A DNA stretch of 64,000 nt. Source: Takakia lepidozioides. Its lineage: Eukaryota > Plantae > Bryophyta. The position numbers and the translations under genes are program-made. The stretch covers positions 48,856,001 to 48,920,000 of the forward strand of contig CM060733.1 in the NCBI GenBank assembly GCA_030704615.1. Reading direction: 5' to 3'. The notes beneath the pieces were generated by a model, which saw nothing but the letters and a program-made list of their open reading frames with translations, was not told the origin of the DNA and ran no database searches. Below are positions 16,355 through 62,371 of this stretch, piece after piece (the stretch's first letter is position 1; each line of letters opens with the position of its first letter).

Positions 16355-16700
16355 TCAACATCTCGCTGAAGAAGCATGCAGACCTCGTTGAAGTACAAGG
16401 GTTGGTTGATATATGCAGTAGTCTCTCTTGAAGTCACACAACATCCTTCTTATAAAAATGTAATAAAGGTGTTTTTGTGGGGGACATGTTTGCCGGCTTT
16501 TTTGCCAAGAGCCAGCAACATGGAAGTGAAGTACAGACAAGAGATAATTTCCCACTGTTACGTTATAGATATTTTGTAACATGGAGTCGTCTGAAACCAC
16601 TGTATACACTCTCTCGTATCCTAGTGAAGGGACTTCTGCATATAACGTTATTGCTGATGTTTTCTCAGTTGGTGATCTATTGAATTCTTCTTTGACAAGC
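16355..16700 (-). pseudogene. Remnant of MULE transposase SWIM C-terminus
   Basis: EVPSLGYERVYTV..QKHLYYIFIRRMLCDFKRDYCIYQPTL aligns with EVPDPGYGRVFTI..CKHLYFIFLKRMVCDPKRDNFIHQATM in ORF 35338-36507. Confidence 0.75.
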
Positions 16701-22804: not shown

Positions 22805-23429
22805 TGTCAGAATAGTTCATAAAAGCTAATTTTGTAGAATAAATTTATTGTCAAGTTATTTTACCACTAATGTGAAGTTAGCTACGAAATAGCTAGCTTT
22901 TATATATTGACATTTGGGATTGACCCAAGTGTCAATCCAGGGGCCAATACATATTTGGGTACCTGGCGTTGTTATCTTCACGGCAGATCGTGGTGGGCTC
23001 ATCTTTCTCGAATTGAGCCTCACCACGTCTAGCTATGGCGCGGTAGTGTAGATACCCCATGGCGTGGGGTGCACTTGGCTCGACTTAATATATAAGTGAT
23101 GTTTTCATGTGCAAGTATGTGAGTTTGAGAGAGCTTGTGTGCTTGTATCATTCCCTTTCTTTATCACTCGAGAAAGATCAGCTCGAGTATGTGAGTGTCA
23201 GGTTCAAGTTATTTTGTAGCACTTGTGTTTTCATGAGAAGCGGTTCAGTCTCGAGTGCAGAGATCCGTGCGTGAGCCTATCCAAAGTGGATAGAGTGCAA
23301 AGGCAAATAGGTTGCAGGTTTGCAATGGATAGAGAGGCGGGTAGCCTATGTTGAAGAGCAGCGTTGCATAGCTCAACGCTATGGCAACGAAGTTTGGGCT
23401 TCTAGTGTGAAGCGGAGGAGATGCTGGCA
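22805..23429 (+). mobile_element. Putative LTR (TGTCAG...CTGGCA) abutting the integrase C-terminal fragment
   Basis: TG..CA ends with imperfect inverted termini; internal TATATAA and patchy similarity to 24400-24560 (TTGAGCCTC, CTTGGCT.GACTTA); no TSD found. Confidence 0.4.
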
Positions 23430-23896
23430 GAGAACCTTGTTATTGCCCAACATCGAGACACATTGAGGTACGCTATATACATGGAGGGGGATATCAGCCA
23501 GGTGTTCGGCGTTTCCATCCTGGGGACTATGTGTATCTGCAGCAGACAGCGCCTACGACCTTGGATGTCACAGTAGGTCGTGTGATTCTAAGGGTCCGGG
23601 AGGTGTTGCCTTCAGGAGTGTTGATTCTGGAGGGTCGAGATGGCATGGTATGGAAGGACCATGTGCGCAATTGTGCGCCATATCACCTTCCACATGTGGA
23701 TGGGAGAATAGATCCCAACCTCGCAGTGGTACCTACAGGGTTGCGTTGCATGCTATGTAGGCATGCTGGTGGTGCCACGACCATGTTGGTGTGTTACAAA
23801 TGCTCAAGGGGGTGGCACATGAGATGTTTGACACCGCCACTTGAGGAGGTTTCTAGTGGGGAATGGTTGTGTCCACGATGCCTTGGACAGAGGTAG
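23430..23896 (+). pseudogene. Ty3/Gypsy integrase C-terminus ending in a PHD finger
   Basis: ENLVIAQHRDTLRYA..RRFHPGDYVYLQQ.. then CMLC..MLVCYKC..WHMRC LTPPL..GEWLCPRC-stop (C4HC3); followed by PPT and LTR. Confidence 0.85.
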
Positions 23897-24142
23897 TGGG
23901 GCATGACAGTGGCGAGGTTGACAAGTGATCCAAGGTCTAGCTAACGGGAGTTCGATGCCATGGACACCCAATTGAAGCCATGGATTGCAGGAAGGCGAGT
24001 AACGATGGGGCTACTTTTTCACCCGGCCTCTTGATCTATTGACTTCAGATAGTGGGACTTGGGCGATTGATGACCAAACGATGATCTTATTGGGATGGAT
24101 ACTTGTCAGCTATCTGGTGTTAGAGGGACCTAATCACCAGCT

Positions 24143-24745
24143 AGGGGGGCGATTGTGGTATAGCTTTCTAAGATTGTGTGTTTAGATTGTGTGGTGGGCA
24201 GCGATGTATGTTGTGGCACGATGCTTAGGTGCATGATAGCTGTCATGGTTTTAGTCATGGTTATCTAGAATTACCTACTTCTAGTTAACTATGACATTTT
24301 AGATATTTATATTTATATTTTGTGTGTTGGGACTTCATTGGGTCTCACATGCCAAGTGAGGTGTCGAGCCTCACTTGGGACATGGGGATAGGTTTTCCCC
24401 TTGTGAGGATGGAGGAGACTCATCTTCTTGTAGTTGAGCCTCCATGAGCTTCTCTCACCTCCATAGCTCTAGGTATTGAGAGGGAGTGTGTTGAGGGCTT
24501 TGTAGGGTGGATTCCCTTAGCAAGGGTGCCCTTGGCTTGACTTAGTTTATGTGATAGAGTGGATCTCACTTGGAAGGAATAGGGCTTGTTCTTAGTGTGA
24601 TTGTTTCATGCTTTGAGAGTTTTCATTGTCTTCCACTTCTCTCATTTCTCATCTCTTATCATTGTGGTATAGCTTTCTAGGATTGTGTGTTTAGATTGTG
24701 TGGTGGGCAGCGATGTATGTTGTGGCACGATGCTTAGGTGCACGA
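24143..24745 (+). mobile_element. Polypurine tract (24143-24152), 3' LTR (24154-24661, TG...CA) and a tandem partial second LTR start (24663-24745)
   Basis: AGGGGGGCGA-T-TGTGGTATAGC; the first ~80 bp are repeated almost identically at 24663 after ...TTATCA-T. Confidence 0.7.
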
Positions 24746-27450
24746 CACACACGACAATCAGCAACCCGCTGCAAATCCTTGCTCGAACCCCACAATGGAG
24801 TGTGAGAACCATGGCAGGCGACTCCGCCATACCATACATGTCATCCTGCTCTCCCGGAGGTGACACATCCTCTGAATGAGTGTTGCCATCCAACAACTTT
24901 CCAGGCAAAGTCACTGCAGCTGTGAATGCTGCCAGTGTTGGCATCTTGCCTCGATGGGCAACCGCAACTCCTCCTATGAATGTCACAGGGAGCTGCACAC
25001 GCCGGCCCTCCCCTGACTGCCATCCAGGCCTATAGGAAGCTGACTCCTCCCAAAAATCCAGGGTGAAGCCCATGGGGTACAACACTGCCCCACCAACAAG
25101 GACATCATACGAGACCGCGTCTGTCACAATGGCCTTTGCTCTTATCACTGAGCCATCTGTAGGATGATCCGACTGTAGTCGGATAGCCAACTCACGCCGT
25201 GTCATGCCCTGAGCCTGCTCTGATCCTCCCAGAGATGTCTGTATCTGGAAAGGGCACGGCTCCATATCCGCCTCTGTGAGGTCCAAGCCTGCAATAGCAG
25301 CTCTGCCCAACATCAATGGCTGAGCTCCCGAGTCCAACAAGACCCGCAGGGCCCGGTACCTCTTGCCTGCCGGTCCACTCAAACAAAAAATGCCATCCTG
25401 GTTGTCTAACATGACAACTCCAGGTGTCACCATGGCGCGCTCAATGGCTAGCCTAGCTGACAGCTCCATCAACCTGGCAGCTGTAGCTTGCCATGGCGCC
25501 ACCGTGGCAGTCTTGACCCTCACATCCGAGGATCCCTCTGGCACTACACCTCCCACTATCTCCGTAGAAGATGAAGTAACCTCCTCACTCTCACAGAGTG
25601 TAGCTGCCAGCCTGAACACCTCAGCTGGTCTTACCCCCGGCGTCGCAATCATGGTAGCCGAGAACAATGGAGCCTGACACATAGCTGTGGCCTGCCCCAG
25701 CAGCACACTAGCTGCCGTTGCCTTGGCAACACTAGATAGTGGTGCTACCCGTGTAGCTATCCCAAATGGCATAGTAACCTCCGCCTCGGTAACACTGTCG
25801 CAGAGACTCCACTTGCACTAGTGGTAGTGCTGAACCCCAACACTAGAGCCCCTCTCATAGTGGTAGTGGTAGTGCTGCCCGGCACTAGTGGTAGTGGTGC
25901 CTCACCCACAGTGGTAGTGGTAGTGGCACCCCTCACTAGTGGTAGTGCTCCCCCTCACATGATCCTATGCCTCCTAAGTCTCTCCTCCCTTAGGCAGGAG
26001 GTTGACCATCCGGCCTTGGAGCCGGTACCACCTGAGCTGTGGCCATGGCAGCGAGCCTCTGCTCTAGCTGCTGAAGCCGGTTGGCCATGCCTTGGTCACC
26101 ACCTTGACCTCCGCGTCCTTGGCCATGTTGAGCTTGCCCTTGGCCTGCACCTCGTGCCTGGCCACCCGGTCTTCTCTGGGCTGCGCTCCACCTCGCCCCC
26201 CGCCCCCGGCCACCATTGTTCCCGTGGAACTGGCCTGGGCGCAACTCATGGATGCAAACCATAGCACTGGGCCTCTCCATGCCGTACTTGCCACAATGCC
26301 CACATTGCACCTGTGCAGGCTTGCCGGTGGCCGCACCATTTTGCCTCCCTCTGGGCAATCCTTCTTGACAATGGGGTCCTCCACGGCACACCCCACATCC
26401 GCCCGTTGTTGGCTTGCAAGTGAAGAGAGAGACCCCTGCATCTGAGGTCCTCTCTGTCCTTCCCTGGGCTTCACCTCATCTCCCTTGTTACCTTGAACGT
26501 TGAGGTAGTGGCTGGCTAGGAGCACCACTACCCCTATACCGCCGTGTTGCCCCTTAGCAAAATCCCACCATGACCACTCGTTCCTCCACCATGTTGAGCT
26601 TTATCCCCGCTCTCGTCCAGCAAAAACACTTTGCTAACGTGGGTTGGGCCGCTTGTAGGAGAGTTTGCATCCCCCAACCCTTCTCCTTAGCTCCTTGTCC
26701 AATATCCCATACTAGAATTGACTGCCTGATCCTCCGTAAACCCCTTGGGTTACATTAATCAAGCACCTCATGCGAGTGAAAGCCTCCTCAAGCTCTCAGT
26801 AGGCTTCTTGAACTCTTGCAAGCTCCTCAACTTCTCTGTCCTCACCCCTTGGTAGTTCCTTCTCAACTCTTCAAAGAAATCCACAAACAGGTTGAAGGCA
26901 GACACCGCCACTGGTGCTGGTGTGCAGCAGTAGCTTGGGGTGGACGTCATAGTTGTTGTACCACTAGTCCCACTACTGTTCGTGAAGCTGCTATTGTAGC
27001 GTTGCACTATGTGCAAAGCTGCCGTGGTGGTTGCTGCCCTGTGCCTCTGTGCCTCTAGTGATGGAGACATAGTCAGGTGACCAGTACATCCTCCACTCTC
27101 TCGATCTCACATCGTGCCCCTGCCTAAACTCATGGTAATCATCCATGGGCGGTCCCTCAAGGTGCTGAAACAGCCCTTCCATGCCATAAAAGGCGTAAAC
27201 ATTGTGGATTGCGCTTTGCTGCAAGTCACACCCCAACTATCAATTTCTTTGACAAAATCATCCATTCAATGGTGGCCACCGCCCCAGAGTACCTACGTGC
27301 CCCTTGGTGGCTCCATACATCTCCTCCATTGTGTCCCACAACAATGGCAAGGAAACAACTTGCAACCGCCGGTGTGAATCCTCCTGATTCACAATCCGAA
27401 TCAGAAACCTTCCTATAAGACACAGGAGGTGAAGGTGGCCTAAACCGCAC
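24746..27450 (-). pseudogene. Second gag-protease copy of the DNMT-Gypsy family, truncated before the DNMT domain
   Basis: Zn-knuckle CGHCGKYG; protease VLLDSGAQPLMLG; long identity in translation to ORFs 33241-34941. Confidence 0.85.
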
Positions 27451-29180
27451 ACTCGTCTCGATACCCGCTAGTATCGGCTAGTGCTGCGTACCGGCACTTT
27501 CCCCCAACAATTAGTGGCACCTCTGTGTTGACAAACTACACTCACCGGTCATGAACCTGTCTCTAACCCCCTCTCCACAAGGTAACCGGGTAGAGAACCT
27601 GATGCGGGCTTATGTTCTGGAATACTAGGTTCCTAACATAGCCTGCACCTGCACCTGCATCCACCACAGTCACTCCTATGGTTGGCTGGTCGTCACCTCC
27701 AACCTCACCACACCCAGGAGAAACAAAGATGGTCGACGGTCATCAACCCAGCTCACCATTGACAGCATGCTCTAGGGTTGGATCGGCGATCAGCCCGAGT
27801 CAACCACACCCACAAAACTAGCATGGCGCACAATCCAGCCATGCAGGTGTGGAGGGGATCCAAACACAGAATAAAACAACAACTCCCCCACACACCCAAA
27901 AACAACTCCACTGTCGCTCCTCCTTCAACCCAGCCCAACCTGGACTGACTCTTGCCTCCACCTACGGAAAGGTCTCGGCCTACAGAGAAGGTGAAAAGCT
28001 ACGAGGAAGGGAAACTAAAGCAATGCCTATCCCAGCACGCTCTCATCCAACACCTCTTTTTTCCTCTCTTCCCTCACTTGCATGACCATGAGAGCATCCT
28101 GTAGCACTCCTCAAACCGCCCTCGCCCGAGCTCATGAAACTTGGCCTCCAAGGCCCCATGTAAGCCTCCACAGGGTCTGCCAGTGCCTCCTTACGTCCCC
28201 CCCATTCCTCAGAATGGAACCACCACCTCAGGAAACCACGCCATTCACTAAGGTTCAAAATGGAGCAAAAAACGAGTGAAAAAAGTTTTTTTTTTTTTTT
28301 TTTTTTTTTTTTGGTCACTCTAACTGTTCTCCGCGGCCTCCGTGGCTCACCGCCACGACTCCTCACGGCCCGCCCTAGGCTCTCGTTTGCCACAGTCTGC
28401 CTCGTGATACCCCGTGGTACCACACCCACGAGCCTTCATGGCCCGCCATCCCCCCGATCTGGTTACCGTGCCCACCTTTTGTTTACGCACCCGACTTCCA
28501 ACGTCACGGTCAACCATCACGACCTGGGCTCGTGGTATCTCGTGATACCACCCCAACGGCCCATCACGGCCACTATTCCTTGCGTTCCCTGGAACTCCCC
28601 AATCCCAACGAGTCCCCATGAGTTCTCGGGGCTTCCCACCGTTCCGGAGCTCTTCCCCGAGCTGGGGTGTGCTCCAGCACCTGCTGCCGCGATCTATGGC
28701 TTCTGCTGCGGAGCCATCAGCCCCCTCGCCCTGCACTCCTGAGCTCTCACCGGGCTACTAGAAGCGCCCCCAACTCACAGAGCAAGCTATAATGCTGCCC
28801 AACAAGCTCCATTTCTTTCATAAAGCTCAAAAAACGAATCTGAAAATACACACAGTTCAAACTTGGTGGACCCTGCACTTCTCATGCATATCCCCTGGCT
28901 CGAGGGCACCTCGTTGCTGCCCCTTCCAGCCCCGCTCTTGCCACTCCAAGAGCCCTTACACTGCTGCATTTTAGTTGAAACTCCAACTCCACTCAGCACA
29001 ATGCTTCACAAGTGCACTGATTTGCACACAAGAGGGACCAGCCCCCTCTCTTCGTTCATACCTCTTCATGAGCTTGGAGCTGAAGCTCCCAACGGGCTGC
29101 AATGCATCCCCTCGGTCAGCTCAACCATTTGGGGCTGCTCCGCATCTACCCGCAACACTAGTTCGAGCAAAAATTATCTA
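27451..29180 (-). mobile_element. Non-coding leader / possible 5' LTR of the second gag copy, starting where the integrase of the main element stops
   Basis: Minus strand begins TGTAGATAAT right after integrase codons R-V; TGGTATCA (PBS-like) near 28545; boundaries uncertain. Confidence 0.4.
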
Positions 29181-30130
29181 CATGACTCTCTTGAACAACT
29201 CTGCCCGTTGGGCACATGCTTGTGTCCACACATCCGGATCATCAAGGTTGAGGACTACTGCAGTCTCCCTGCGAATAGATGCAGACAAATCTGGCTCTCG
29301 GCCAAAAAAAAGGAAATAAGGCGAGAACGAGGCAAGTGATGCTTGCTTGCTAAACCTATAACCCATGGCCAACCAAGGTAGCTGAAGGTCCCAATCTCCT
29401 AAGTGTCTCTTCTGCAAGCCATACTTGCGCAAGCCTCGCTTGACTGTTTGCACAACCATCTCGGCCAAGCCACCAGCTTCGGGATCATCCCGAGAAGTAG
29501 TGCGGTGATCTATCAAGGCTTGCTCACACAAAGCCTGAAACTCCCCCAAGAACTCTCTCTCTTGGTCCGTGAGTACCTCGGCTGGAGCACCAAATTGGCT
29601 AAGCACTCGATCTAAGAATGTATACGCAGCCCCCTCATTTGCCTTGTCAGGCAATGCCACCAGTTCAATCCATTTGGAGAAATTTTCCACCATCACCAGC
29701 ATATACTTGTTATGGCGAATCATTAGTGGCAATGGGCCTGCGAAGTCAAGACTCCAATGATAGCCCAAACCCATAATGGTAAAGGATGCAATTGTGGAGT
29801 AGGTGCATTTAAAGAAGCCCGCACTCTATCACACACCATGCACTTTGCCACTAACTGTTGCACATCCGTGTGCATGCCCCGCCACCAATATTGTCCTTGC
29901 AACAAACTATGGGTACGCCGCACCCCAAAATGTCCCCACTCCAAACCAATCGCTCTCGTTGTGTTGGATGAGGCACAATCCTCACTCGTCCATCTCCCAT
30001 ACTCGGAGTAGGTGGTCCCCCTCCCACTTGAACCTCTTGGCCTCGTTGCTTGGCTCGTTGTAGGATCCGATCTCTCTCCTTAGCAGTCACACCGGCTGTT
30101 GTCTCTCTAGTACAAAGGTAGGCCAACATT
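29178..30130 (-). pseudogene. Integrase (HHCC zinc finger plus DDE core)
   Basis: GHFGVRRT..YWW..CMVC; SLDFAGPL..VLTDQEREF..GLAEMVVQTVK. Confidence 0.92.
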
Positions 30131-30334
30131 GCTGCATCTTCATGTACATCCTTAACCCACCAAGCTCCTCACCGATCTCTGGATCGTCATGCACACTATC
30201 TCTATGACCAATCGCATGGGATGGACCAGCTTGAGCTTCCATTGCTAGAATGCATAAAAATGCAGATGCATGCCCATCCTGGCACCATCTCCTCGTCTGT
30301 CTCACCATGCCAACGAGCTCCTGTATCATCAAAC

Positions 30335-31684
30335 TCACTTGTGCATGGAATTGCGACTCAATCCATCCGCATCTGGTTTGACTATTTCGGCTCGATGCAC
30401 CACCTGGAAGTTGTACTGTTGAAGCATAAGTGCCCACCGTGCAAGCTTCCTTGTAAGCTTGTCTGACTCCATCAACCACTTCAATGGTTGGTGATCTGTG
30501 ACAAGAGTGAAGAGATTGCCATAGAGGTAGCATCTAAAATGTGCCACTGCCCATACTGCAGCTAGACACTCCCTTCATAGGAAACTATACTTCCGCCTCG
30601 GCATCATTTTTCGAGCGGCTAGCATATGCCACTACGAACTCTCTTCCCTCATCATCCACTTGTGTGAGCACTGCTCCAATCCCCAGCATACTCCAATCCG
30701 TATGTAGCTGGAAAGACTGCCCCCGAATAGGCCGCCTCAGAATAGGCGCAGAAGTCAATCGAGCCTTGAGTTCCTCAATGGCTTCCTCCTGCTCCTGCTC
30801 CCACTGCCACTCTTGACCCACCTTGGTCAACTTGGTAAGAGCCTTTGCAATGCTGCTAAATCCCTTGACAAATCGTCGATAGTAGTTTGCCAATCCCATG
30901 AAAGCACGAACTATGCTCACATCCATGGGGCGTGGAATGCATGCAATGGCCTCCACCTTTGTCTTTTGAATACCCAATCCTCCAGGGTATATCATGTGGC
31001 CCAGATACTCAATGTGATTGTGGAAGAACTTGCACTTTCCGGGGTGCAGTTTCAACCCGTGTGCTCTCAAGCGCTCAAACACCATCTGAAGGTGTCTCTC
31101 GTGCTCCTCAATCGTAGCACTAAAGATGATGATGTCATCAATGTAGCACCGGGCGAAGTCTAGCCCCGCGAGAATCCTATCCATGACCCTCTGAAACTCT
31201 GCAGGAGCATCTTCAACCCAAACGGTAAGAACCGCCATTGGTACAAACAATCCTTCCCATGTTAGTCAATCCCCCAGAATGTCGTCTTTTGCTTGTCAGC
31301 CTCTTTGATTGGCAACTGGTGGTAACCGGATCGCAAGTCCAATGTGCTAAACACCTTTGCATGCCCAATGGCATCAAAGATCTCCTCTGGAGTTGGCATG
31401 GTATATGTATCGGACTTAGTCTGACGGTTCACAGGACGATAGTCCCCACACATCCTTCTTTCTATCCAATTGCCAGAGATATCCTTCTTAGCTGGCATCA
31501 CCGTTGCCGAGGCATACTCCCCGCCTGACAACTCCACTAATCCAGCTTCGAACAACTCCATAGTCCGTGACTGGATCAATGACCTCTCCATGTCACTGTA
31601 CCGGTAGGGCCTTCGAAAGATTGGCGTGTCACTTGCCAAATCAATACGAATCTCTTGACCCTTCAAACTCCCCAAATCCTTCAA
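30335..31684 (-). pseudogene. Reverse transcriptase plus RNase H
   Basis: RMCGDYRPVN; LDLRSGYHQ; YIDD; KCKF; FQLHTDWS; LVTDHQPLKWL; DADGLSR. Confidence 0.95.
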
Positions 31685-32211
31685 TCCGAAGTCAAAACAA
31701 TTTCTATAAGCCCTTAGAAATCGCCGAATCCTCCGTCTCTCTCCTCCGGTGACTGTAGGTCCAACATCTGGTTCCCAATTGTCCTCAGTGACTACAACCT
31801 TGGGTACAACAGGCTTGGAGGTAGGAGACGCATCCTTTGGTTGCTAGATAGCAACCTCTTGGGCTTTATCCACCCACCCTGACCGTGGCGTAGCCTCCAC
31901 TTGCTCCGCCATAGCCACCTTGAGAACATCCTTTGGGGAAGAAACATTCTCAACCTCTTCAAAAACATTGGCCACCTTGGCCTCCAACTGATCCTCAGTG
32001 TATGGCTCTCCCCACTCCTCATACTGTTGCTTGAGAGATCCAATGACTCTCTCTTTGCGCATCTCATCCCACATCCATGGGTGTTTGTACCCCGTGATCC
32101 TGTGCTCGCCCCCACTCACTGCCTCCACCGTCCCGGTTGGCAGAGATGGTGCAATATCCAATGGAAGTGCAGAAGTAGCCACTAATGCTTGCAATCTTTG
32201 TTGCTCAGCCA

Positions 32212-33158
32212 TGCACAAGCCAATGACCCATGTCAAGCAATTGAGATCCATTGCCTGACCCAACACCTGGCGTCGTAATGCCTCTGACAGAGCTGGCACA
32301 GCTGTAGTGCACGTGGCAAATCCCATTGCCCGCTCTCGCTCATCGGCATTGGGCTCCACCAATTGCTGTAACACACTGTCCCAAATCAACCCAGGACCAT
32401 TGAGCATGAGACGAGGGAAAGCTCATGAGCGTAGGCAAGGCTGCACGTGGCTGCCCCACTTGGTTTACCACTGCTAGAGGTGAACGGTCATCATGTCGCA
32501 CCCTCTGCCGTTGCCTCCCTTGGTCCAAAATGCCCTCAAGTGTGAGATTGGGTGGCCATTGAATGGAATCATATGCTCTCTTGAGCAGCTCTGGTGGTGC
32601 AAGATTGGTCCACCACAATCGAGGTCGATGCGCTCGTGATCCCACCGCTGCTGCATCCAATAGCACCGCCGATCCAATCCAAGACCGCACCTGATGCACA
32701 CTGGCCATAACCCTGGCCCGAGAGTCCCCCATAAGAGGAACATTCTCCAAGATATAGGCTAGAGGTTGCACTTGCCTCGTCTGCAAGTCACGCAACACTC
32801 TCAACATCTCCCAAAATAAATGCGATCGTGCATCATGCAAGCCATTCCCATGACCTGCGGGAGAGTGTCCTTGGCAAGGCCATCCAGCTATCACCAAGTC
32901 AATGGCACCATGCTGGTCCAAATCATCCACCCCCAGCAAGGTAATGTCTGTTGGCAAGGCCTTTTGGTACCCTTGAATTGCTGAGAGAGGCAACAACTCA
33001 GGATATTGATGTGTGAGCAAGGCAACTTGGCGCATGGAAACACGCTGAGCAATCTCATCCTTCTCCACATACATGTACTTGCGTACTTTGATTCTTGCTT
33101 GCAACACTCCTGCAAACCCAGTGCTCATGCCTCCAAACAGGTCTAGCAAACAAATCCC
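32212..33158 (-). pseudogene. DNMT3-like C5 cytosine DNA methyltransferase domain embedded in Pol (one frameshift near 32400)
   Basis: Motif I LDLFGGMSTG; II YMYVEKD; III DIT; IV DLVIAGWPCQ (Cys codon 32874-32876); V LFWEMLRVL; VI YILENV; VIII DAAAVGSRAHRPRLWWTNL; IX ERERAMGF; X RRQVLGQAMD. Confidence 0.92.
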
Positions 33159-33240
33159 TGAGTCAGATGGTTGTCAGGTAATGGGCATTGTGTCCAAAGG
33201 AGCTAATTGAGGAGGTCCGGGTGATGTCACTGAACTCCCC

Positions 33241-34891
33241 TCACTCATCAATGGAAAGGCCTCTTGTTGTGCTTGGTGCACACTCTCGCCTGCTACTCGC
33301 TGCAAATTCCCAACCGTATCCCCACAGTGGAATATGCACAGGCACATGAGGAAGCAACTCAGCCTTGTATGCCATTTGTTTGTCCTCATCAGATGGTGGT
33401 CTATCATCTGCATGGCTATTGCCCGCCAAGAGCTCACCACCCCAAGCCACCACCCCTGAGAATGCAGCCAATATGGGCATCATATTCCTATGATCCACCG
33501 CTACATTCCCAATAAACCGTACTGGGAGCAGTGCACGTCGGCCATCCCCTGACTGCCACTCCGGCCTATAGGATGTCGTTTCCTCCCAAAAGTCCAGAGT
33601 AAATCCCATTGGGTATAACACAGCCCCACCAACAAGCACATCATAGGACATCGCGTCTGTAACAATGGCTTTAGCTCTCATGACTTAGCCATCCGTAGGA
33701 TGATCCGGCTGCAATCGAATGAAGAGCTCATGGCGTGTAATCCCTCGTGCCTTCTCTGAACCGCCCAAAGATGTTTGAATTTGAAAAGGGCAAGGCTCCA
33801 AATCCGCCTCTGTAAGGCCCAAGCCTGCAATTGCTGCTCTTCCCAACATCAATGGCTGTGCTCCTGAGTCCAACAAGACCCGTAGTGGCCTATACCTCCT
33901 CCCGGCTGGGCCACCCAACTGAAACACACCATCCTGATTGTCCACCAGGACTACCCCAGGAGTCACCATGCTGCGCTCAATGGCTGGCCTAGCTGGCAAC
34001 TCCTGCAACCTTGCAGTTGTCGCTTGCCATGGTGCAGCTGTGGCAGATTTCACCCTCGAATCCAAAACATCCATAGATTGCACCTTATCTGCTATCTCCG
34101 CAGATAATGCCAATGCATCACCACTCTCACAGAGTCTAGCTGCTAGTCTGAATACAGCAGCTGGCCGAATCCCCGGCATTGCAATGGTCATTGCAGAAAA
34201 TAATGGAGCTTGGCAAACCGCCGTACCCGCCCCCAACAATGTACTGGCTGCACCTTGCTTTGCAGCACCACCCACTGGCATTTCCTGAGCCACACCAACT
34301 CTCCCCAATGACACTCGTGGCTCTACCTCTGACACACTTGGGTGAGCGGGTGTCATTGATGGCGTAGGTGGCACTGTCTCAGCCAATGTAAAGGACTGTG
34401 GAAGCCTTGTCTGACGACTTGTTTCCCCCCTTTGTGGATCAAAATCCACATCCGCTCCTCTTGGCTCAGGAGCACGCGTTGCTGCTCGAGTGACAGCAGC
34501 AGCAGAGTCCAATACATGCAATGGCCTTGCAAGTGCGGCTCCACACATGAAGCCCATACCAATCTGAAATTCCCTAGGCATAGGAGGTTGTGCAAGTGGG
34601 GCTTGAACCTCAAGCCTTGGAGCTGGCGCAACATGAGTAGTGGCCATGGCAGCAAGACGTTGCTCTAGCTGGGCAAGTCTATCCACCATGCCTTGGTCAT
34701 GACCTTGACCCTGACCCTGTGCTCCTTGGTTTTGGTTACGACCTCCACCCTGACCTCTGCCTCCTCTACCTCTCTGGACTACATTGCCTCGTCCTCGGCC
34801 ACCATTGTTCCCTTGGAACTGGCCTGGCCGTAGCTCAGGATGCAAGCCATAACAATGGGCCTCCTCATGCCCATACTTTCCACAATGCCCA
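33241..34891 (-). pseudogene. Gag C-terminus (CCHC knuckle, G/Q/R-rich) plus aspartic protease
   Basis: GHCGKYGHEEAHC; VLLDSGAQ; YDVLVGGAVL. Confidence 0.88.
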
Positions 34892-35337
34892 ACGACGCAA
34901 TGGTGTGAGCGTTGCGCATGAGCGCACGAGCGTACGCTCACACAGGAGTGACGTGGCGTGAGCGTGCACCCACGCTAACGTGGTGTGAGCGTCATGTCAG
35001 CATGCTGCTGTGGCAACAAATGATGACGTGACACTGTCCGTCATCTTCCACGTCAGCATTAACATGCGCCGCCTATAACCGAGGATGGTCCTATGACCGT
35101 GGAATTAATGCAGGGAATCTTGCCTAAATAGAATCAAGACTACCATGAGGCCTACAATTGTAGCATCCAACATTATGCAATTATAAATGCTTGTTTCACA
35201 TTTACAATTACGAGGACGAGAAAATATCAGAGCTCACTCAGTATAGTTGGAGGCCATATCATTGCACCGCCGACGAATTGATGTGAATTACACATTTCAA
35301 ATCATGGTCGTCCACATACCACATTGCATAGTTGATG

Positions 35338-38300
35338 CTACCCATGTGTTGTATCCCGCTGCAATAGAGTATCGACCTCGTTGAAACTCATAGTGGCCTG
35401 GTGAATGAAGTTGTCACGTTTGGGATCGCAAACCATCCTCTTCAAAAATATGAAATACAAATGTTTGCAGGGTATGAATTTACCTCTCTTGCCCAAACTG
35501 GTTGATAGCATATTCACAAAATCAGGACATGTGCAATTGGGGAAATTGGAAACCGTGATGTCGTAGGTCCTGTCATGAACAGTAGATGTGGAAGTGATGA
35601 TTGTGAATACCCGACCATATCCTGGATCGGGTACTTCCGTGGTGCTTCCAACACGAGCTTGGAGCATTCTTGCGGACTCCACTTTGCCAAAGTGTTCAGC
35701 GGTTGGAGGGAAACGCCGAACGAGCTTTCCATCTCGTTTGGTTGGCCACAAGTCAGGATTTGCCGGGGGGACCCGGGAGGACGCAGAAGTAGTAGCACAT
35801 GCATGGAGTTGGGGTTGTCTCGCAAGGGAAAAGTCTGCCTCATCCAGCATTTCAATCTCCTGAAATCTGAGATGTGTTCCCACCTTCACGGGCCAAACGG
35901 TTGGAGGAGATGGCTTCATCACTACGGAAGGACGCACAGTTCCATGCACACATCTGGCACAATCATCTGCACAGAACCAAAACTTGTGGTTCTTGGCTTC
36001 TGGTTGACCGTATGGACATATCAAACCCGTGAAAGTCGGAGCAGGAGTTTGGGCACCACCTCTGGATATAGATGAAGTGCACTTCTTGAAATTAGTTGCC
36101 CTGATCGCTGTACATTTCACACAAGACCCTACACTTGTGTGTTCTATGTGCCAAACGTGGTCGGGGCATGCGGACTCAATGTTTCTCTCCTGCACCATTT
36201 CAGTGGCACTGTTTGATGCTGGAGCTTGCCGTCGTGTTGGAGGTTCCTCCACAATGGAGGTTCTGGACATGGAGCTGTCATGTAGGGGAACACGAGGCTT
36301 CGAGAAGTTATCACGGTCTGCCCTGTGTGAATCGGAATCTGAACCAGGTGGAATGTTCAATTTCCTCTCACAGGAGCCGAATCTCTCCTCCCCTTCAAGA
36401 TGTGGAACTCTAGAAAAAGTGGCGTTCCCTGGGCATACATGCTCACCGCCCGTGCTATCTTGATTGGATCCCCAGATCTGTTTGCAGCACGCAACATGAA
36501 CTCCCATTTGTCCGGACCCTTGCCACCAACCCCACCTCGCAAGAAATCAAGGTATCGGGTTTGTTGTTGCAAGGCACGTATCAAATCATCTGTTGTTGCC
36601 ACATACAAATCCCGACCTCGTTTCCCAGACTGCTGCAACCATGCGCTGTGCACAGTTTCTGCCAAATTGCAAGATGGCATGTCCGCCATTTCTTCAATGG
36701 ACATGTTCTGCAAAGTGGAGAACCACACTTCAAAACAGTGAACAGAAAATAACATAAAGAAAGCGAGGAGACAATAAAATGGAAAATAAATGTATGAATA
36801 AAGCAAGAAATATAAGTCTCGTACCACTGCCATGGCTGCTCCCCACTGTCTATACCGGAAGTGCCAAAACGCCAGCCAATCTTCCAATGCTCTCATACTC
36901 TCAAGTGATGCAGCTCCAGAAGAGAACCACCAGGCACGAATTGTCTAGAACGAAGTGTCCGCCTCCTTCATTGTTCTATCATCTTTGTACTCTTTGCACA
37001 ATTTACGGTGCTGAGTCTGCATCTCTGGTTTGATGTCCGACTTTGTATGTTTTTCCAGAGATTGTGTCCAATGGAATAGACATGTACGCTCTCTTCCTCG
37101 CATTGGCACTTTTGGGTCGCCCGATCCGAAGACAATACGAACAGCATTGAAATTTGCTTGAGCACTATCCGCCATGAAACCTGCAAAATTTGGAGATGGC
37201 AGCCCATGGCAGCCCATGACACGTATCAGGGAATTCCACATGAGCTTCTGGGATTCCGTATCCTCGGATTGCATGTCACAAACTGCAATTGTCATAACTC
37301 GTTGGTACACTGGATCGTAGACATGACAAGCCATTGTCGTCCAATCCTTCACTCGTTTTACATGATCAAACATAAGAAAACAGTTCTACAAGTCCCCAGT
37401 CTTCTGCATCCGCTTTACGAGGCTAACCCCACTGCCCTCCCCAACAGTCGACATTTTGAAAAGAAAAACTTTGATGGCACCTTGACCTGGGAGTACATTG
37501 TCCTGGATGTAATCGTACTTGCTCACTCGTTTCAACTCCAAATGTTGTCTATGTAGCCTCTGATACCAGAGCCCATTCTTAATGCATTGATCTGATGCCG
37601 AATATTAGGTGAACTCAAAGTGGAGATATGATCCATGACCAGGTCCAATGCTGCACCGTCAAGTTTAGTCCCCACAGAATCCCCTTCACTCAAAATATGG
37701 CTTTCCAAGAAGGACTTGCTTGCGCCAAGAGCAATTGCGGATGTTGTTGCGGATGGGTTTCTCCCGAACTCATGTTTAATCAACCTCGATATTGTCTCAA
37801 CACTCTCCCTGTAATCCCCCTTCGAGACAGGATGGTTATGGAATCCGAAATGCACACAAGCTCTTGTCATTGTTTTCAAACGGTGGACAACATAGTACAT
37901 TCTTGCTCCGCAGAGCGCCAAGCAGGATGGCACAAGTTTGCAGAATTTGCGGACGAAAATGTTTGCCGGTGGTGGGGCAGTCCCAGGCTGAAATGGATTT
38001 TCCGCCAGACCCTCCCATTCGCTTTGATTATGAACTCCAGACTGAAGAAAGTGTCTACAATTCAAATTATCACACCTAAGGTGTCCATTGCAAACTGTTC
38101 TCCTGAAAACAAGCTTGTCATCATTCTGAATATTGGATGTTTTTGTTCTGCACCACGGGTGCCCGTCGTGTTTCTTGTCCATTCCATGCATCATGATTGT
38201 TACACCTCCAACTCGCGGAGGAGGAGGCAGCTCGAATAGGTTATCGCCATCAAAAGTCTCTGGCAAGAACTTCACAGGCACCTGCTTCAAAGATTCCCAA

Positions 38301-38836
38301 TCAATTCCTCGCAACTCACTTTTGAGTCTAGCCATTCCTCCCATCGCCCGTAGTTTTGGAATGACACTACAAATGTCTTCTTCATCAGCTTCTCCAACCA
38401 CAGTAGGAAGGACTGGATTTGGAATTTCACTTATGTCATCATCGAACGAATCCGAAAGCTCAACGATTGGAGTGGAGGACGTCTGTTCTTTTTTCACCAC
38501 CACCTCCCTCTTGTCTTCAACGACCAAAGCAGCAGTCATGGGCGTCACATATGACCCAAGGGACTTTCGCCGAGGCTCTCCAAGTACTCTCTATCGACCA
38601 GGGCGCACTCTCCACTGGCTGACAGGAGCCGTCTCATCACGGTTTTGGAAAGAGTATTTCAACAACTTCCCTTTCAAATCGTACACCTCTTTCTCCAAAA
38701 AGATGGAGCCATTCTGAAGCTGAAAACGGGTAGCCAAGACATGTTCCAGAACAATTGCAAATCCATTGTCAAGGACTTTCTGGGAGAACCGCACTGGTTT
38801 GTCGTCAGAGAAGAACTCCGCTTCAGAGGAAGCCAT
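35338..38836 (-). pseudogene. MULE/Mutator transposase with N-terminal GCM-like DNA-binding domain and C-terminal SWIM finger (frameshifted; probable intron 36824->36708)
   Basis: WCRTKTSN..CNGHLRC..C..RACVHFGFHNHP (GCM-like); FDHVKRV, FMADSAQA, CLFH, NLAETVH (DDE with CxxH); CTCPDF..PCKH (SWIM); 117-nt T-rich GT..AG segment. Confidence 0.8.
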
Positions 38837-39494
38837 CTTCCTTCCTCGCGTACGTTGATACCTTGCTATCGCAGACCTTCAGTGTAAATCGGTTTACTGA
38901 TGTCTCTAGAACACAGTTGAAGAATGAGCAGAGAATATGGCGGAGGAAGCTCAGACGACAACTGTGCATATTTTGTTATTCCTTCCAGATATGCAGCCGT
39001 CCATTTTAATTACTTTTCTTGTGGGCCCAGTGGTCAGAGTATCCCTAGGAGCAATGTCGGCAGCTGTTAGACCGTTAATTAAAACCTCATCAATAAACAC
39101 AATAACAAGCCGACTTCCTGGAAGCATGCCACAGGATCTGAGGGTGGGATTGCAGATTAAGTAAATGTATCTTTATACTACTACCAATGATCATGCGCAC
39201 CTGGAAAGTTCAAAATGTGAAATGAACGAGGGGTTGGCTAAGAGGTTAGCTATTTCATGAGCATGAGCGGCATGAGCGGCATGAGCGGAGTAGTAAGACA
39301 ATCGGTTTTCATGAGCAGAAGTACAAATTTCGAAAATAAAAAACATTAAAAAAACCAATTAAAAAACATTAATTTAATGCAATGTGTCAGGAAAAACAAA
39401 TATATTATTCGGCCCCTTGAAGGGAAAATTGTAGTTTTGACAGTTGTGCTCATGATATTTCGTCTTCCGCTCATGCCAATTCCCAGCGACATGT

Positions 39495-39930
39495 GCAAAT
39501 ATGGCGCCGAATTTCGCGGTAATAGGGTCCGTAACCTGAAAAAACGGCAACGTATTTCGCGGTAATAGGTCTCTCTGGCGAAAATGGTGCCGAATTCCGC
39601 GGCTATAGGTCCCCTCATGACAGGTAATTCGGCGCCATTTTTCCAGTGCATGTTCGGACTTAGCCAGTTTTCGGCGCAAAATAGGGAAATTCGGCGCCAT
39701 TTTTCCAGACACTGTACCAGTGCATGTTGGGACTTAGCTAGTTTTCGGCCCAAAAAAGAGAATTCGGCGCCATTTTTCCAGACACGGTACTAGTGCATGT
39801 TGGGACTTAGCCAGTTTTCGGCCCAAAAAAAAGAAATTCGGTGCCATTTTCCCATACACATGTACCAGTGCATGTTGGGACTTAGCCAATTTCCGGCCCC
39901 AAAAAGAGAAATTCGGCGCCATTTTTCCAG
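39495..39930. repeat. Repeat block: ~73 bp tandem units (AATTCGGCGCCATTTTTCCAG..TGCATGTTGGGACTTAGCCAG, ~4.3 copies) preceded by inverted core copies and CGCGGTAATAGG motifs
   Basis: Units start near 39626, 39688, 39761, 39835, 39909; probably transposon subterminal repeats. Confidence 0.8.
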
Positions 39931-40085
39931 AAATGGCCCCACAACTGCTTCTGTTGGATCTCAGTTTGAATGGAATATTGCCTCATTCCAGGAGTTTTGG
40001 GGTGCATTTCATTACACTGCAAAAAAAAATCTAATACAGCAAAATGCAATTGAAAATATCCATATGGAGGATTCTCTTTGCCCCA

Positions 40086-41257
40086 TCAATGATTTCTGGA
40101 ATCCCTAAGGAGGAGTTTGTGCAGCTCGTTCACGCTCAATGCCGGTGCATGAATAAAGTCATCAATAGTCACGTTCATCCTCAACCTCTTCAGGTAAATG
40201 TAATACAGATGCTTGCACGGATAATACTTCGAACCCTTCTTTGCTTCCATCAACGAGAAGTCCGTACAATTGCAAGTCGGCTCCACTCCAATCGTAATTG
40301 TGTATACATCGTCGCGTACAGCCGAGCCGGCCGTTGCCATCCGATACACACGCCCAAGGCCCGGGTGGGGGTACGTCCACGGACCTCTGAATAGTGCAAG
40401 CCATCCCAAGAGCATTGGCAATTCGAGTCTCATTCAACTTGTTGGGAGGGTGTCGTATCTTCACTCTTCCGAATTGCATTGTGGGATGTGCAGAATTGTC
40501 CAATCCGTCTCTACTGGACCGAGCAGTCTGCAATGGCTGGGTCTGAGGAACCGGAAATGCGTGGGCCGGGATGTCTGTGCGTTGCACCATTCGAAATCCT
40601 GCTGCAGATAGAGCATCCGCCTCATTCTAAGAGAGGCTGCAACCCGGTACAACAGGCCAGATGCCCGGAGGCTCCGGCATTCCCTGAATCCCGTACTTGG
40701 GCTTGCCAAATACACAGGTCATTATGTCGTGCCTACAGAACCAAAATGTCGTGTGGGTTCCTCCGAATCATCTCACCACAGCGTGCTCTCGTATCCACCC
40801 GGATGGCGCAGCACTTCCCTCGAAATGCCGGCAATGTCCTCGCAATTCTCCACTGTGACTCCGACACTCTTGTCTCCACAATGGGAATGTTGTACTGCTT
40901 TACTACAGGTGGCTCATTATGTTGCCGGGGCACGCGCCCTGTGCTCAAAGGAGATGGCGATCTTGAACGTGCAGGACTTGCGGTGTTCGACTACCTCCTC
41001 GGGCAACATCACCGGACCACGAGGGAGCGTGCAAATATTATTGTCAGCTCGCCATGAATCATCTTCTCCGCCAGGTGCCTCGTCAAGTCTTCGTCTCACT
41101 GGACGGGTATGAACATCTCCTTCCAAATGTTGGCCTCTTTGCAGCAATGGCGTGTCCCGAAGGCCCTCTCGCAAGGCCGCCACCCACTTCCGAGGATTCT
41201 TCGATCTAGAGGCAGTCCGCATCAGCATTTCCTGCTTGTCCGGCCCCAAGCCCCACT
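40086..41257 (-). pseudogene. 3' half of a second GCM-MULE transposase (SWIM end), cut by the CACTA insertion
   Basis: GLGPDKQEMLMRTASRS matches GKGPDKWEFMLRAANRS of the first copy; SWIM CNCTDF..PCKHLYYIY. Confidence 0.8.
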
Positions 41258-42232
41258 CACTAATACAGAAACCGGTTTTTTTAACGGCTCTTCTCACACA
41301 TTTTCGTGTGAAAAGAGCCCAAGTTCACACCCCCCTTGGTGTTAGGTTAACCTAGTCCTTTGCACCACATGTGAACTTTCTTGGTCCTGTGAAAAAAACC
41401 ATCTCACACCAAACTTGCACCTGATGTGGCAGTAGGTTTAGGTGGCTCTTTTTACGGATATTTTGACGGCCGTTTTGACTGGTTAGTTCAACTACTATTT
41501 TGACTAAGTAATCTTAATGGTCTTTCTACGGTACTTATTACACCTCATTGCCACCATGTATGCCACATGTATGTCAAAGGGAATGCCACGTAATAGAGTC
41601 CATCAGAATTATTAAATAAATAATAGATATTAAGGGCTCTTCTTACGGATTCTCTCACACAGATTTAACACCAGGTTCAAGTCGTGGTGTGATCGCAATG
41701 ACACTAGTGTGAATACTGTCATATCCATTGTTTTGTTCCTATTGGACGAAAAATAAACAATTATTATTTGTTGACAAATGCCAAAATGAATAGTCATATT
41801 ATTATTCTTATTATTCTTATTATTCTTATAATAAATGGGATAGCACCCCAAAAGCCATTGGCTGCTTGATTTAATATGTAATATATTATTATTTTAGAAT
41901 TATTATTTGTTTTGTTTCATTTAAACAAAAGCTTATTTAAAACATGGATAATAATTGTATTATTAACCACATTGACCAATAGTAATGTTATTAATATTAA
42001 ATATAGCAAACAACCAGCAAAATACCACATTCATGTCTACACAAGAAAAATTTGGCTTGATGTGGGAAAATGAAGTTGCCCTTGAACAAGGGGATCTTGT
42101 GATCATACATGAGAATAGCAAGAGCATCAATTCAAAAAATACTGTTCATGTGAGAAGAGCTGTTTTGTTCACCTGTCTCAGCAACCCTCAATCCATAAAG
42201 AAAACTAAACTAAACTTGTAGCACCTTCAATA

Positions 42233-45200
42233 TCATGCGTGTTTAAGAAACTTTTCAGACCATAAGGTGGAACTTCCCTGCGTGTCACCCAATGTGGTAT
42301 AATTAGGGGTAACAGAGTAGGATACGATCTTGTAGAAGGTATCAGTAGGGACAATATCTTCAAATTGCAAGATGGGTGCAGAAGCTGCCAATGCACCAAT
42401 TGGTCCGGGTACGGCAACACAACCTCTGAAATCATGACCGATTTCACATGGATACGGTAATAGTTGTCTGACACATTTGCTTTCGGAAATCCAGCAATAT
42501 ATCCCACACCTGCCCTTCTTTTTGGTGCACAAGGATCAAATAATAACACCTTGTCGCCGATCTGAAACTGCAACAAAAACCAGATTCCTATATCAGAAAT
42601 GAACCCTGGAGAACAGAAACTGACAGCTTGACACTCCTGCAAAATGACATTGAAGTTCTTCCAGCAAACACCCCAACCCTACCTATTGCAGTACTTCCAA
42701 TTCCGAATTGCATTTGCTTGTCTCTATACTACATGCTGACATGATCAAAGCTGGAACGGTGCCATACCTAGTTGGTAGCAGGTTATGCATGGTCAACATG
42801 GATGTGGTAGGACGATGTTACAAAACTACCTTCGTAGGTTGTTGGGCCTGCAGCTATGTGGCGATACATAAGAGGTGTATTGATCCAGCATCAGACAAGG
42901 AAACAAAATTGCACAAATGAAGTACTTACACTGTGCGGATTTTGTTGGTCACCCTGTGGTTCAGTTAGATCCACTGTGGTTGTAGTCTGATTGATAGCAC
43001 ATATTGTACTCTCCCTGTCCATTGAACGCTTCACTGGTTTCACCATCTGTATATTGAATGACACAATGATCAAAAAATGAGAATAGCACGAATGACACAC
43101 ATTGTGAAGTAGCATTAACAATACAAATCCACCCACGCGCCCAAGCATTGAAACTTTTGCTCTCACCTTTCTTTGATTATGCTTTGTTGTTGCATCGGGA
43201 GGCAAAGTCGTTGGAACTCTGGCAGCAGGAAGCCCTGGTTCGGATGCCTTTGCAGATTGTTGTGATCCACTACCCATGGCTGCAGTATTGAACAAGTAGT
43301 TGGGCTGCCCATATCTGTATGGGTGCCCTGACACATACTCAGGGATGTGTGCAGCCTTGGATACACCCTCTAACCAAGGCAGTAATTCTTTCATAAGCCT
43401 CTTACAGTTTGGCTGATCCCTCAACTTCCATGGATACGGGAAGATGCAATTATTTGCAGGGTTGGGTAAGCAAGTGAGTGGGGAATCGTCCACCAGCAAA
43501 GTATTGGTTGGATTGTAATGGTTGTAGTCCTTCCAAAACTTACATAAGTTCTTGTACATGACAGTTTTAGAAGGATTGAAAGGGTCCACCATTCCCACAG
43601 GCTGGTCACAATAGTCTTGGTGAAGCACCATCTTTGGTTGCTTCCCACGAAACAAAGCTTTCACAACTGGAAGGACATTACTCAATGACATGGAAGACCA
43701 TACACCTACATCAAAAATCTGAAGGCATCGGTCCAGAAACTCCTGACACCCAGGTCTGGAGGTGACAGTGGGCTCTAGGTATTCCCTTGTTCGTAGTTTG
43801 CTCTCACATAACAATCCATTCAAGTCAAGTATAAAGATGTGTTTCTGCCTCTCAGTTGCCGAAGGGCAATTACCTACAACTTGTACATGATTATCATGTA
43901 CAAAAGACACACCTTTCTGTGGGGCACTCTGCAAATTCATGGAGACCTCACAGGCATATTGAGAGGGTAGTACATATGCCGGCAGTGCTACTGGTGTAGG
44001 GGACAACAAAACTGATGAACACTTTGCAGTTGCCTCAACAATATGGGGGGATGGATTGAGTTCACCTTCAGACCAACCCTCCATGTCATCATCCCCCTCC
44101 ATTTCTGAAAGCCCAAACAATGAGCCTATTGTGTTTGGCTTTGGTGGCGGTGAAGAAACTGCCTTGAACAGGTTGAGTGGTGAGCCCATAACATGAGAAA
44201 TAGTCTCATTTGTTGGATGTGGCGCAAAGGTGGTGCATGGTGGACCTGTAGGCTGTGAATCTGGCACATTCATGCCAAGTTTAGCTGCGAGCGCAATGTT
44301 GAATGCAGCTGCTACCTCCAGTTGGACTTGGACTGCTTCCAAAGCTGCCTTGGAGCTGGCTTCCATCTGCACTTGTTTGTTTTCCATAGCATCGAGGCGA
44401 GCTGCTAGTGAACCAATTCCCTGCCCCATCACATAGAACACCTCCAAAGTAACAATTCACTACACTGACTGATGAACTAGTAAGAAAAGAGAACCAAACG
44501 GCAATTAGCAATGGCATGGAAATCACGAATATGTAATTCACACCAAAATTGGTACTGAGTTCATATATCGTTGTGGCTGCACTGCCTGTACACCCCGACC
44601 CGTAGCCTTTGTCACTCCTGGCGCTACCGGCGATCTCCTGCAAACTTGGTGTACGTCCAGTCTCCTTCTCCTGTGATTGCAACAAACTTGCAAGTGTAAA
44701 TGACTAGCATAGCACACTGCCAACAGTAAAGAATTATCTAGGATAGCGTCAATGACTCCCCCTCAATAAGAGTGCTTAGTTTCTTGCTGGCGCCCAACTC
44801 TGAGAAGGCCCCCAAGTAGTAGCAATGTGTACTAATTCCATCCATATAGGAATAGACTATGAGCTCTATAAAAAAAAACCCAACACATAAAGTTTGTCAA
44901 TGCAAAACAATGTGGGAACTTCCTATGTTGTAAGAGAAGTATACCAGTCGTGCTACAACACCGCTGATTCCACTGCGACCCGATCGAGATGTATTCTTCA
45001 CACATCCCCGCGCCTTGACACCATTTGCCTGGAATTTCTTGAAATCAGTGGAACCCCAACTAACAACTAGTTGTGCCCATGTCTTGTCTGGCACATGATG
45101 GGGTTTGGGCAGCCCCACACTATAGTAATTTTTGAACAGCTTATTTCGTTGGTACTTGAGCTGCCCGCAAATTGTTTTTGTAATAGCCTTTATGTTAAGA

Positions 45201-48093: not shown

Positions 48094-48127
<34 letters not shown>

Positions 48128-62330: not shown

Positions 62331-62371
62331 TGTTGCTAGGCCGAGCATATATGACCAGGGCGGGCAAAACA

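Follow-up and report, generated by a model that had tools for sequence, protein, structure and literature searches.

The window considered in the current work is a stretch of 64,000 nucleotides of the Takakia lepidozioides genome (GenBank assembly GCA_030704615.1, contig CM060733.1, positions 48,856,001 to 48,920,000), the minus strand of which encompasses, from position 34911 to position 29181, the 3' part of a gag gene followed by an aspartic protease (PR), a C5 cytosine methyltransferase of the DNMT3 type (DNMT), a reverse transcriptase (RT), an RNase H (RH) and an integrase (IN), in that order (Table 1). The succession PR-RT-RH-IN, with an integrase of the DDE type, is that of a Ty3/Gypsy element, and the copy in the window, which is dead and rearranged, belongs to a streptophyte retrotransposon of this class that is present in abundance. 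An earlier interpretation of the stretch, made from its letters and referred to here as the sequence-only reading, had located the methylase inside Pol; judged from the position of a conserved in-frame stop codon between DNMT and RT, the methylase instead belongs to the first open reading frame (ORF1), which comprises Gag-PR-DNMT.

All of the methylase motifs named in the sequence-only reading were retrieved on the minus strand where it had placed them (LDLFGG at 33129-46, GWPCQ at 32871-85, ENVP at 32736-47, RAHRPRLWWTNL at 32601-36, ERERAMGF at 32318-41 and RQVLGQAM at 32249-72), and the Pfam comparison that it had proposed yielded a PF00145 match (E=1e-13, 51.7 bits versus a cut-off of 22), with RVT_1, RT_RNaseH, Integrase_H2C2 and rve being located downstream. 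The domain is of the DNMT3 type, its motifs I to X being linear and unpermuted with the catalytic PC, ENV and RxR. Among PDB sequences, DNMT3A, DNMT3C and DNMT3B are closest (E 6e-10 to 1e-6), followed by DRM2 (4e-5) and bacterial enzymes, and an AlphaFold model of the unbroken DNMT domain of a divergent relative (L001; predicted local distance difference test score of 90) retrieved DNMT3A/B as top structural matches with Foldseek (E 3e-19, TM 0.72-0.73). The earlier assignment to DNMT3 as opposed to DRM is therefore upheld by both rankings, and an enzyme of the DRM, CMT or MET1 type is rejected. Across 52 proteins in which the DNMT follows the protease or precedes the RT (type A, see below), PC[QN] is present in 45, EN[VTA] in 50 and [AS]HRxR in 47. 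A search of the ESM Atlas returned generic, mostly phage, C5-methylase clusters and nothing on the range of the element.

The methylase is an integral part of this Gypsy family, as the sequence-only reading had proposed. Protein searches retrieved 54 longer relatives and 180 of similar length (the best 120 of these 180 being considered), and the named relatives among the matches listed were Marchantia polymorpha (many loci), M. paleacea, Calypogeia fissa and three Sphagnum species, with identities of up to about 70%. A metagenome scan added 118 relatives, the best 80 of which were analysed as loci. PR or gag lies upstream of the DNMT at 59 of the 65 loci with enough flanking sequence, and RT, integrase or a PHD finger lies downstream at 51 of 55, with nearly fixed spacing, so that dozens of loci, as well as proteins of Marchantia, Calypogeia, Sphagnum, Closterium and Klebsormidium, share the layout gag-PR-DNMT-RT-RH-IN-PHD. 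The linker of the predominant (main) family matches the Sphagnum fallax gene model P0050. Such recurrent placement between PR or gag and RT, at the same position and spacing in several genera, refutes a one-off event in which a processed copy of a host DNMT3 landed in a Gypsy element that was already dead, an explanation for which no supporting point was found, which is also contradicted by the DNMT and RT trees both separating type A from type B elements, and whose probability is negligible.

The host clearly contains the family in abundance: in one host DNA run, 26,479 contigs map on the element and cover 30 of 30 bins, DNMT bins included (the summed depth of this run not being a copy number). 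Another run, presumed to be of RNA, yielded 21 short contigs and is left out of consideration as regards expression. The land-plant context suggested earlier agrees with PPR_2 matches in the window and with liverworts and Sphagnum being the closest named relatives, which point to a plant that is probably of bryophyte grade, and a search of IMG/VR yielded a single distant match (L081). Marchantia polymorpha contains many annotated full-length Gag-PR-DNMT frames (e.g. Mp4g09160, Mp8g17980 and Mp5g06330). The Marchantia P0003 cluster includes several annotated Gag-PR-DNMT genes of 1278-1281 aa labelled as hypothetical or CCHC protein, part of which are located on the V sex chromosome (Mp_Vg00370, Mp_Vg00540).

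The window copy itself is decayed. Its 5' end is truncated, the 5' part of gag and the 5' repeat being absent, its protease matches Asp_protease_2 weakly (E=0.015, under the cut-off of that profile), and further breaks are present in RT and integrase. The frameshift that had been attributed to decay near position 32400 is real (near 32403) and is a product of decay, the domain being uninterrupted by frameshifts in 33 of 35 relatives. The claim that the DNMT frame continues from the upstream linker across a single TGA is correct as to the TGA, which is a product of decay, but an additional frameshift near 33320 also interrupts the protease-linker region. This TGA, which is likewise followed by CAA CCA, was considered as a programmed stop and rejected, given that 68 of 70 relatives carry no stop at that codon. 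The remaining stops had been ascribed to decay as a whole, which holds for a copy that is dead through several breaks but does not hold for the TAG at 31844-46, since a stop is kept at the same place across the lineage.

Counts of this stop cover related loci and distinct related sequences. DNMT and RT share one frame at 41 of 51 loci, the other ten having indels, and all 41 same-frame loci carry an in-frame stop 16-20 codons ahead of the RT. When sequences were anchored on the RT frame, the stop was present in 45 of 48 distinct sequences (TAG in 30, TAA in 15), the three misses having an indel-shifted frame; the following codon is CAA in 43 of the 45, and no other of 40 codons has more than two stops. 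The stop occurs in four divergent families (the window copy, L001, L064 and the Sphagnum-like main family), with TAG CAA CCA being shared by the window and the divergent L001, the frame of which runs uninterrupted through 438 codons up to the stop and 766 beyond it. At the protein level, 48 of 61 proteins with a complete DNMT and either PR before or RT after it (a set that includes near-duplicates and partial models) end past the DNMT without an RT, and the Klebsormidium protein P0456 (a partial model) and its kin P0048, P0450 and P0519 likewise end after the DNMT.

Considering that the stop is conserved and is followed by CAA, the methylase closes ORF1, and readthrough is the likely source of RT and integrase. 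The type I readthrough signal used by plant viruses such as tobamoviruses and benyviruses is UAG-CAR-YYA (PMC3542737), and the window and L001 have UAG followed by CAA CCA; unlike in type I viral readthrough, the stop is here located between the DNMT and RT of a retrotransposon, and the main family has CAA CCC. A leaky stop that separates gag from pol has been called very rare among long terminal repeat (LTR) elements (PMC3441728).

It is proposed, with a probability of about 0.6, that ORF1 encodes a Gag-protease-DNMT3 polyprotein ending in the UAG-CAA-CC stop, and that readthrough now and then adds RT, RNase H, integrase and PHD. Translation of ORF1 would generate Gag-PR-DNMT in bulk, and the methylase, being encoded ahead of a leaky stop, would thus be made at Gag levels; many DNMT copies would be packaged in the particle, released by the element's protease and used to methylate the element's cDNA inside it, the most likely purpose being for new copies to carry, on arrival, methylation resembling that of host DNA or heterochromatin. 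The conserved stop thereby predicts a methylase that is made like a structural protein and not like an RT. The closest matches of the PHD finger are CHD4, KMT2D/C, WSTF, KDM5, PHF21A, AIRE and UHRF1; many PHD fingers of the CHD4, KDM5, PHF21A and AIRE type read unmethylated H3K4, and the finger may steer insertion away from H3K4-methylated chromatin.

Several observations weigh against this proposal. Most main-family copies match only five of the six letters of the readthrough motif, whereas the window and L001 match it fully, and the main family has an ATG two codons past the stop, so that reinitiation is possible there, an ATG which the window and L001 do not have. RNA folding downstream of the stop was not unusually stable relative to shuffled sequences in three of three cases (z -0.4 to -0.9), and relatives from other subclades (the P0498/P0259, P0411 and P0432 clusters) have DNMT and RT fused without a stop. 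Most of the 80 loci belong to the one main family, and several represent one insertion in different samples. In the published Klebsormidium nitens element KnitGypsy-Dnmt3, the Gypsy DNMT is said to share an ORF with RT, and that element gave no methylation in yeast, a result called inconclusive by its authors; human DNMT3B failed too (de Mendoza et al. 2018, PMC5890265). Finally, the DNMT is less constrained than the RT within the main family, the ratio of nonsynonymous to synonymous changes (N/S) being 0.62 versus 0.25 for common variants and 1.03 versus 0.49 for singletons.

An expression route other than readthrough, in which splicing, reinitiation or a subgenomic RNA supplies RT and integrase from the same stop-containing element, is considered improbable. 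Besides the ATG of the main family, one is present four codons past the stop in L064; Marchantia and Sphagnum gene models (P0001, P0050), being predictions only, join DNMT to RT by skipping part of the linker, and Ogre elements have an intron between protease and RT. Such routes are at odds with there being one stop only, with a frame that is open on both sides and CAA in nearly every case, and reinitiation is further opposed by the window and L001 having no in-frame ATG nearby.

Purifying selection on the DNMT, which had been named as a test of the sequence-only reading, is seen between families: comparing the window with 37 main-family copies, synonymous differences are saturated (pS 0.75) and the proportion of nonsynonymous differences (pN) is 0.24 for the DNMT, versus 0.28 for PR, 0.17 for RT and 0.16 for IN. 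Long-term constraint on the domain is thus supported by the sequence comparison between families, being weaker inside the main family. The weaker constraint relative to RT, together with the inactivity of KnitGypsy-Dnmt3 in yeast (PMC5890265), would also suit a domain retained for binding DNA or RNA or for flipping bases, for instance as a shield of the cDNA against deamination or nucleases, with catalysis being minor. As motif IV with its catalytic Cys, ENV and RxR are kept in both the type A and type B lineages, this explanation is regarded as very improbable.

Where the enzyme would act was also considered. Synthesis at Gag levels would provide far more enzyme than one cDNA requires, which would fit an enzyme that works in trans inside the nucleus, either on the chromatin of the host or on copies already integrated (silencing the element itself or shaping insertion sites), rather than on particle cDNA; host DNMT3 of moss performs de novo CG/CHH methylation of heterochromatin (PMC6453930), and a brake on transposition is given as a possibility by de Mendoza et al. 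(PMC5890265). Fusion to Gag, by the established behaviour of such fusions, would instead pull the DNMT into the particle, and the DNMT has no chromatin-reader domain of its own, the PHD sitting on the integrase, which leaves action in trans about as improbable as the alternative expression routes. The observed/expected CpG ratio of the element (0.47) falls within the range found for the rest of the window (0.31-0.52), and self- and host methylation are not told apart by these overlapping values. One alga and the dinoflagellates are the known sources of transposons that encode the very enzyme by which transposons are usually silenced, and Marchantia polymorpha, a genetic model with full-length Gag-PR-DNMT frames, makes the role of this enzyme testable.

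The ends of the element depart from those of ordinary LTR retrotransposons. Relatives begin 5' with a repeat of ~340 bp (A) that starts with TGTCATG and is followed by a conserved CTCAAAGAA, where a tRNA primer-binding site would be expected, and end 3' with a G-rich tract followed by a second repeat (B, 113 bp, ending in CGACA), then A, then B again. Such B-A-B ends were found in seven distinct insertions, with one more being cut after B-A, and single-B ends in about eleven; elements therefore have the form A-coding-B-A-B or A-coding-B and are not bounded by two identical direct LTRs. TG...CA ends and short target-site duplications are present in relatives, a perfect 4-bp duplication flanking seven of the nine loci with both ends (three of four letters match in L019, and L008 is cut by a contig end). 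This arrangement of repeats around Gypsy domains is DIRS-like, and the window has the same B-A-B block at 24152-24749, behind an integrase C-terminal part and a PHD finger. Membership of DIRS/PAT is contradicted by the rve integrase, and no recombinase match was found in the proteins scanned. In L010 (6206-6318) and L030 (6216-6328), an inverted B repeat is located ~1.4 kb upstream of gag, replacing the 5' A repeat.

The junction between B and A is fixed and palindromic (CGACA-GC-TGTCA), whereas the junction between A and B is variable, with extra letters in L033 and L035/L037 that match the sequence before the first B or after the first A, as would those of a ligated two-LTR circle junction. 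On the simplest reading of these sequences, B+A is the true LTR, and the integrase would act at the internal, palindromic junction of B and A; the split ends hint that an internal att site, possibly one on circular cDNA, is used for integration. The circle-junction model has been given up in retroviral work (PMC11054761). The mirror product A-B-A-coding-B was found at none of the 25 loci with a 5' A repeat, for which reason a model in which a two-LTR circle is simply cut symmetrically is not accepted in unmodified form. Single-B ends may result from B-by-B recombination or from assembly collapse. Split repeats predict an unusual route of integration and may be the reason for the absence of the family from LTR catalogues.

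A broader scenario, which is tentative and held to be rather unlikely in its entirety, would combine these elements into an old green-plant LTR lineage with a capsid-level DNMT3 ahead of a leaky stop, cDNA methylated in the particle, and integration from a circular two-LTR intermediate opened by the DDE integrase at the palindromic att site inside the LTR, yielding the permuted A-coding-B-A-B provirus. If true, it would represent a natural example of the circle-junction mechanism that is no longer accepted for retroviruses, and liverwort and moss genomes would contain many overlooked de novo methylase genes missed by LTR finders.

A profile search retrieved 567 clusters at E < 1e-30, the architecture being read from the best 150. 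Type A, with the DNMT after the protease or before the RT, accounts for 12 of these 150, and most long ones are of type B, RT-RH-DNMT-IN(-PHD), a large and diverse set (P0033-P0052, P0358-P0497) in which 39 of the best 150 representatives have the complete RT-RH-DNMT-IN-PHD. Named type B records are the chlorophytes Hariotina and Scenedesmus; named type A records include Closterium and Klebsormidium nitens GAQ93235.1 (P0456), and a Coleochaete RT-IN-PHD protein groups among type A RTs. One record of the P0247 cluster (226 members, RT-IN-PHD proteins of the lineage) bears the label 'uncultured Synechococcales cyanobacterium' and is probably a eukaryotic contig in a bin. Types A and B fall on separate sides of a quick RT tree (67 rows, 30 of type B; support 84 for A and 99 for B) and of a DNMT FastTree (106 rows, including 45 of 107 type B rows; support 93 where long branches meet), P0456, with its PR-DNMT order, being on the type A side of the latter. 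Both trees comprise element sequences only, and a single capture of the DNMT for both types is therefore only suggested by them; the RT tree contains no Klebsormidium RT.

The kind of element described here is already published, namely KnitGypsy-Dnmt3, with Gypsy domains, an intronless DNMT3, DIRS-like repeats and Ka/Ks < 0.2 (PMC5890265). Both combine Ty3/Gypsy domains with an intronless, unpermuted DNMT3, A-coding-B-A-B repeats and purifying selection, and the K. nitens protein P0456, which is inferred to be KnitGypsy-Dnmt3 itself, has the same PR-then-DNMT order. The family differs in its land-plant hosts and its high abundance here, in the conserved stop that separates DNMT from RT, the DNMT of KnitGypsy-Dnmt3 being described within the ORF of RT and RNase H, and in its range: KnitGypsy-Dnmt3 was described as having been acquired within the K. 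nitens lineage (PMC5890265), whereas Closterium, Coleochaete (RT part), liverworts and Sphagnum all contain relatives and chlorophytes contain a sister architecture. This range argues against an acquisition confined to Klebsormidium, and the family appears to continue the KnitGypsy-Dnmt3 lineage in land plants.

SymbioDIRS-Dnmt3 of Symbiodinium also carries a retrotransposon-borne DNMT3 and split direct repeats, and methylates CG de novo in yeast, but has a tyrosine recombinase instead of a DDE integrase, the DNMT in the RT frame and an unrelated RT lineage (PMC5890265). Chlorophyte type B Gypsy elements share a related DNMT domain (35-42% identity) and an integrase with PHD but have the DNMT between RNase H and integrase in pol; no paper describing them was found, no search having been aimed at type B alone. 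REM1 of Chlamydomonas is said to be a PHD-bearing Gypsy element. Gypsy-7a_cRei of Chlamydomonas has a PHD accessory domain and LTRs described with subparts, the available part of its description mentioning no DNMT (PMC9940879). EpiLTRs and DAM-LTRs are likewise LTR elements bearing DNA methyltransferases, but with a DNMT that is sister to DNMT4 and with DAM and a chromodomain, and the streptophyte Gypsy-DNMT3 is treated as distinct from them (bioRxiv 10.64898/2026.05.21.726589). The available parts of later papers say 'streptophytes' and do not name land plants (PMC12344493; the same 2026 preprint), and the accessible main text of REXdb has no mention of PHD or methyltransferase (PMC6317226). 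The sequence-only reading knew of no description in land plants, and searches on bryophytes, split-repeat Gypsy elements, readthrough and circle integration retrieved, by title and abstract, no report on this family, subscription papers and Repbase lying outside the scope of this search. An element-derived DNMT3 could confound methylome work in bryophytes.

Table 1. Features of the methylase-bearing Ty3/Gypsy lineage in the window (positions count from the first letter of the window)
Feature	Positions	Strand	Remarks
3' part of gag	34600..34911	-	tblastn versus Marchantia P0003, residues 328 onward
Zinc-knuckle-like CGKYGHEEAHC in gag	34852-34884	-	Gly/Arg-rich tract also in gag piece
Aspartic protease	33538..33918	-	LLDSGAQ 33856-33876; stop near 33685 breaks the frame; tblastn to relatives
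Protease-DNMT linker	33174..33537	-	frameshift near 33320 and decay stop 33174-33176
DNMT3-like C5 cytosine methyltransferase	32201..33158	-	~319 codons; motifs I-X linear; frameshift near 32403
In-frame stop TAG 31844-31846, then CAA CCA	31838..31846	-	end of ORF1; predicted readthrough site
Reverse transcriptase and RNase H, decayed	30350..31780	-	YIDD 31134-31145; RVT_1, RT_RNaseH, RT_RNaseH_2
Integrase zinc-binding and core domains	29181..29935	-	Integrase_H2C2 E=5e-13, rve E=1e-13; stops at 29181, short of C-terminal part
Truncated second copy from the lineage, with gag and protease	24825..27306	-	LLDSGAQ 25320-25340; ~74% identity to main copy across protease region
Polypurine-like tract GGGGGGCG, then B1 24152-24236, A 24237-24660, B2 24661-24749 (ends CGACA)	24140..24749	+	85-bp direct repeat, 97.6%; layout as in relatives
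Integrase C-terminal part and PHD finger of the lineage	23420..23893	+	PHD E=3e-10
Diverged A-like repeat upstream of PHD piece	22845..23150	+	local alignment score 84 versus best 39 in 100 shuffles

The second copy contains no DNMT. The plus-strand integrase piece begins ~4 codons from where the minus-strand integrase stops, and, a diverged A-like repeat being located upstream of it despite this fit, the IN-PHD block may be either the displaced end of the main copy or a separate deleted copy. A GC-rich stretch lies between the truncated integrase and the second copy (28286-29180), with a T run of ~26 bases at its end (a poly-A on the minus strand). Decayed pieces of a SWIM-finger (MULE-like) transposon adjoin the truncated 5' end of the element (35338-41324), another SWIM-like piece being located near 16358-16768.

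The remainder of the window contains PPR_2 matches at 2669-3181 and 9153-9767 and many decayed, cross-matching PPR repeat fragments in both orientations (1600-10800 and 55150-56750). A CACTA-type transposase is present on the plus strand at 51339-54723 (Transposase_21, DUF4218 and DUF4216; 797 codons open), and the opposite strand carries, at 42894-46312, a NIF/FCP1-like phosphatase ORF (521 codons, E=3e-16) and a Pro-rich ORF, both of which may be transposon cargo. An unrelated, ordinary Gypsy RT/RNase H/integrase remnant without a DNMT match (60335-62664) and a LINE endonuclease remnant (48127-49526) are located on the plus strand, and a 165-bp inverted repeat (97%) with a DUF7869 ORF is found at 12740-13899.

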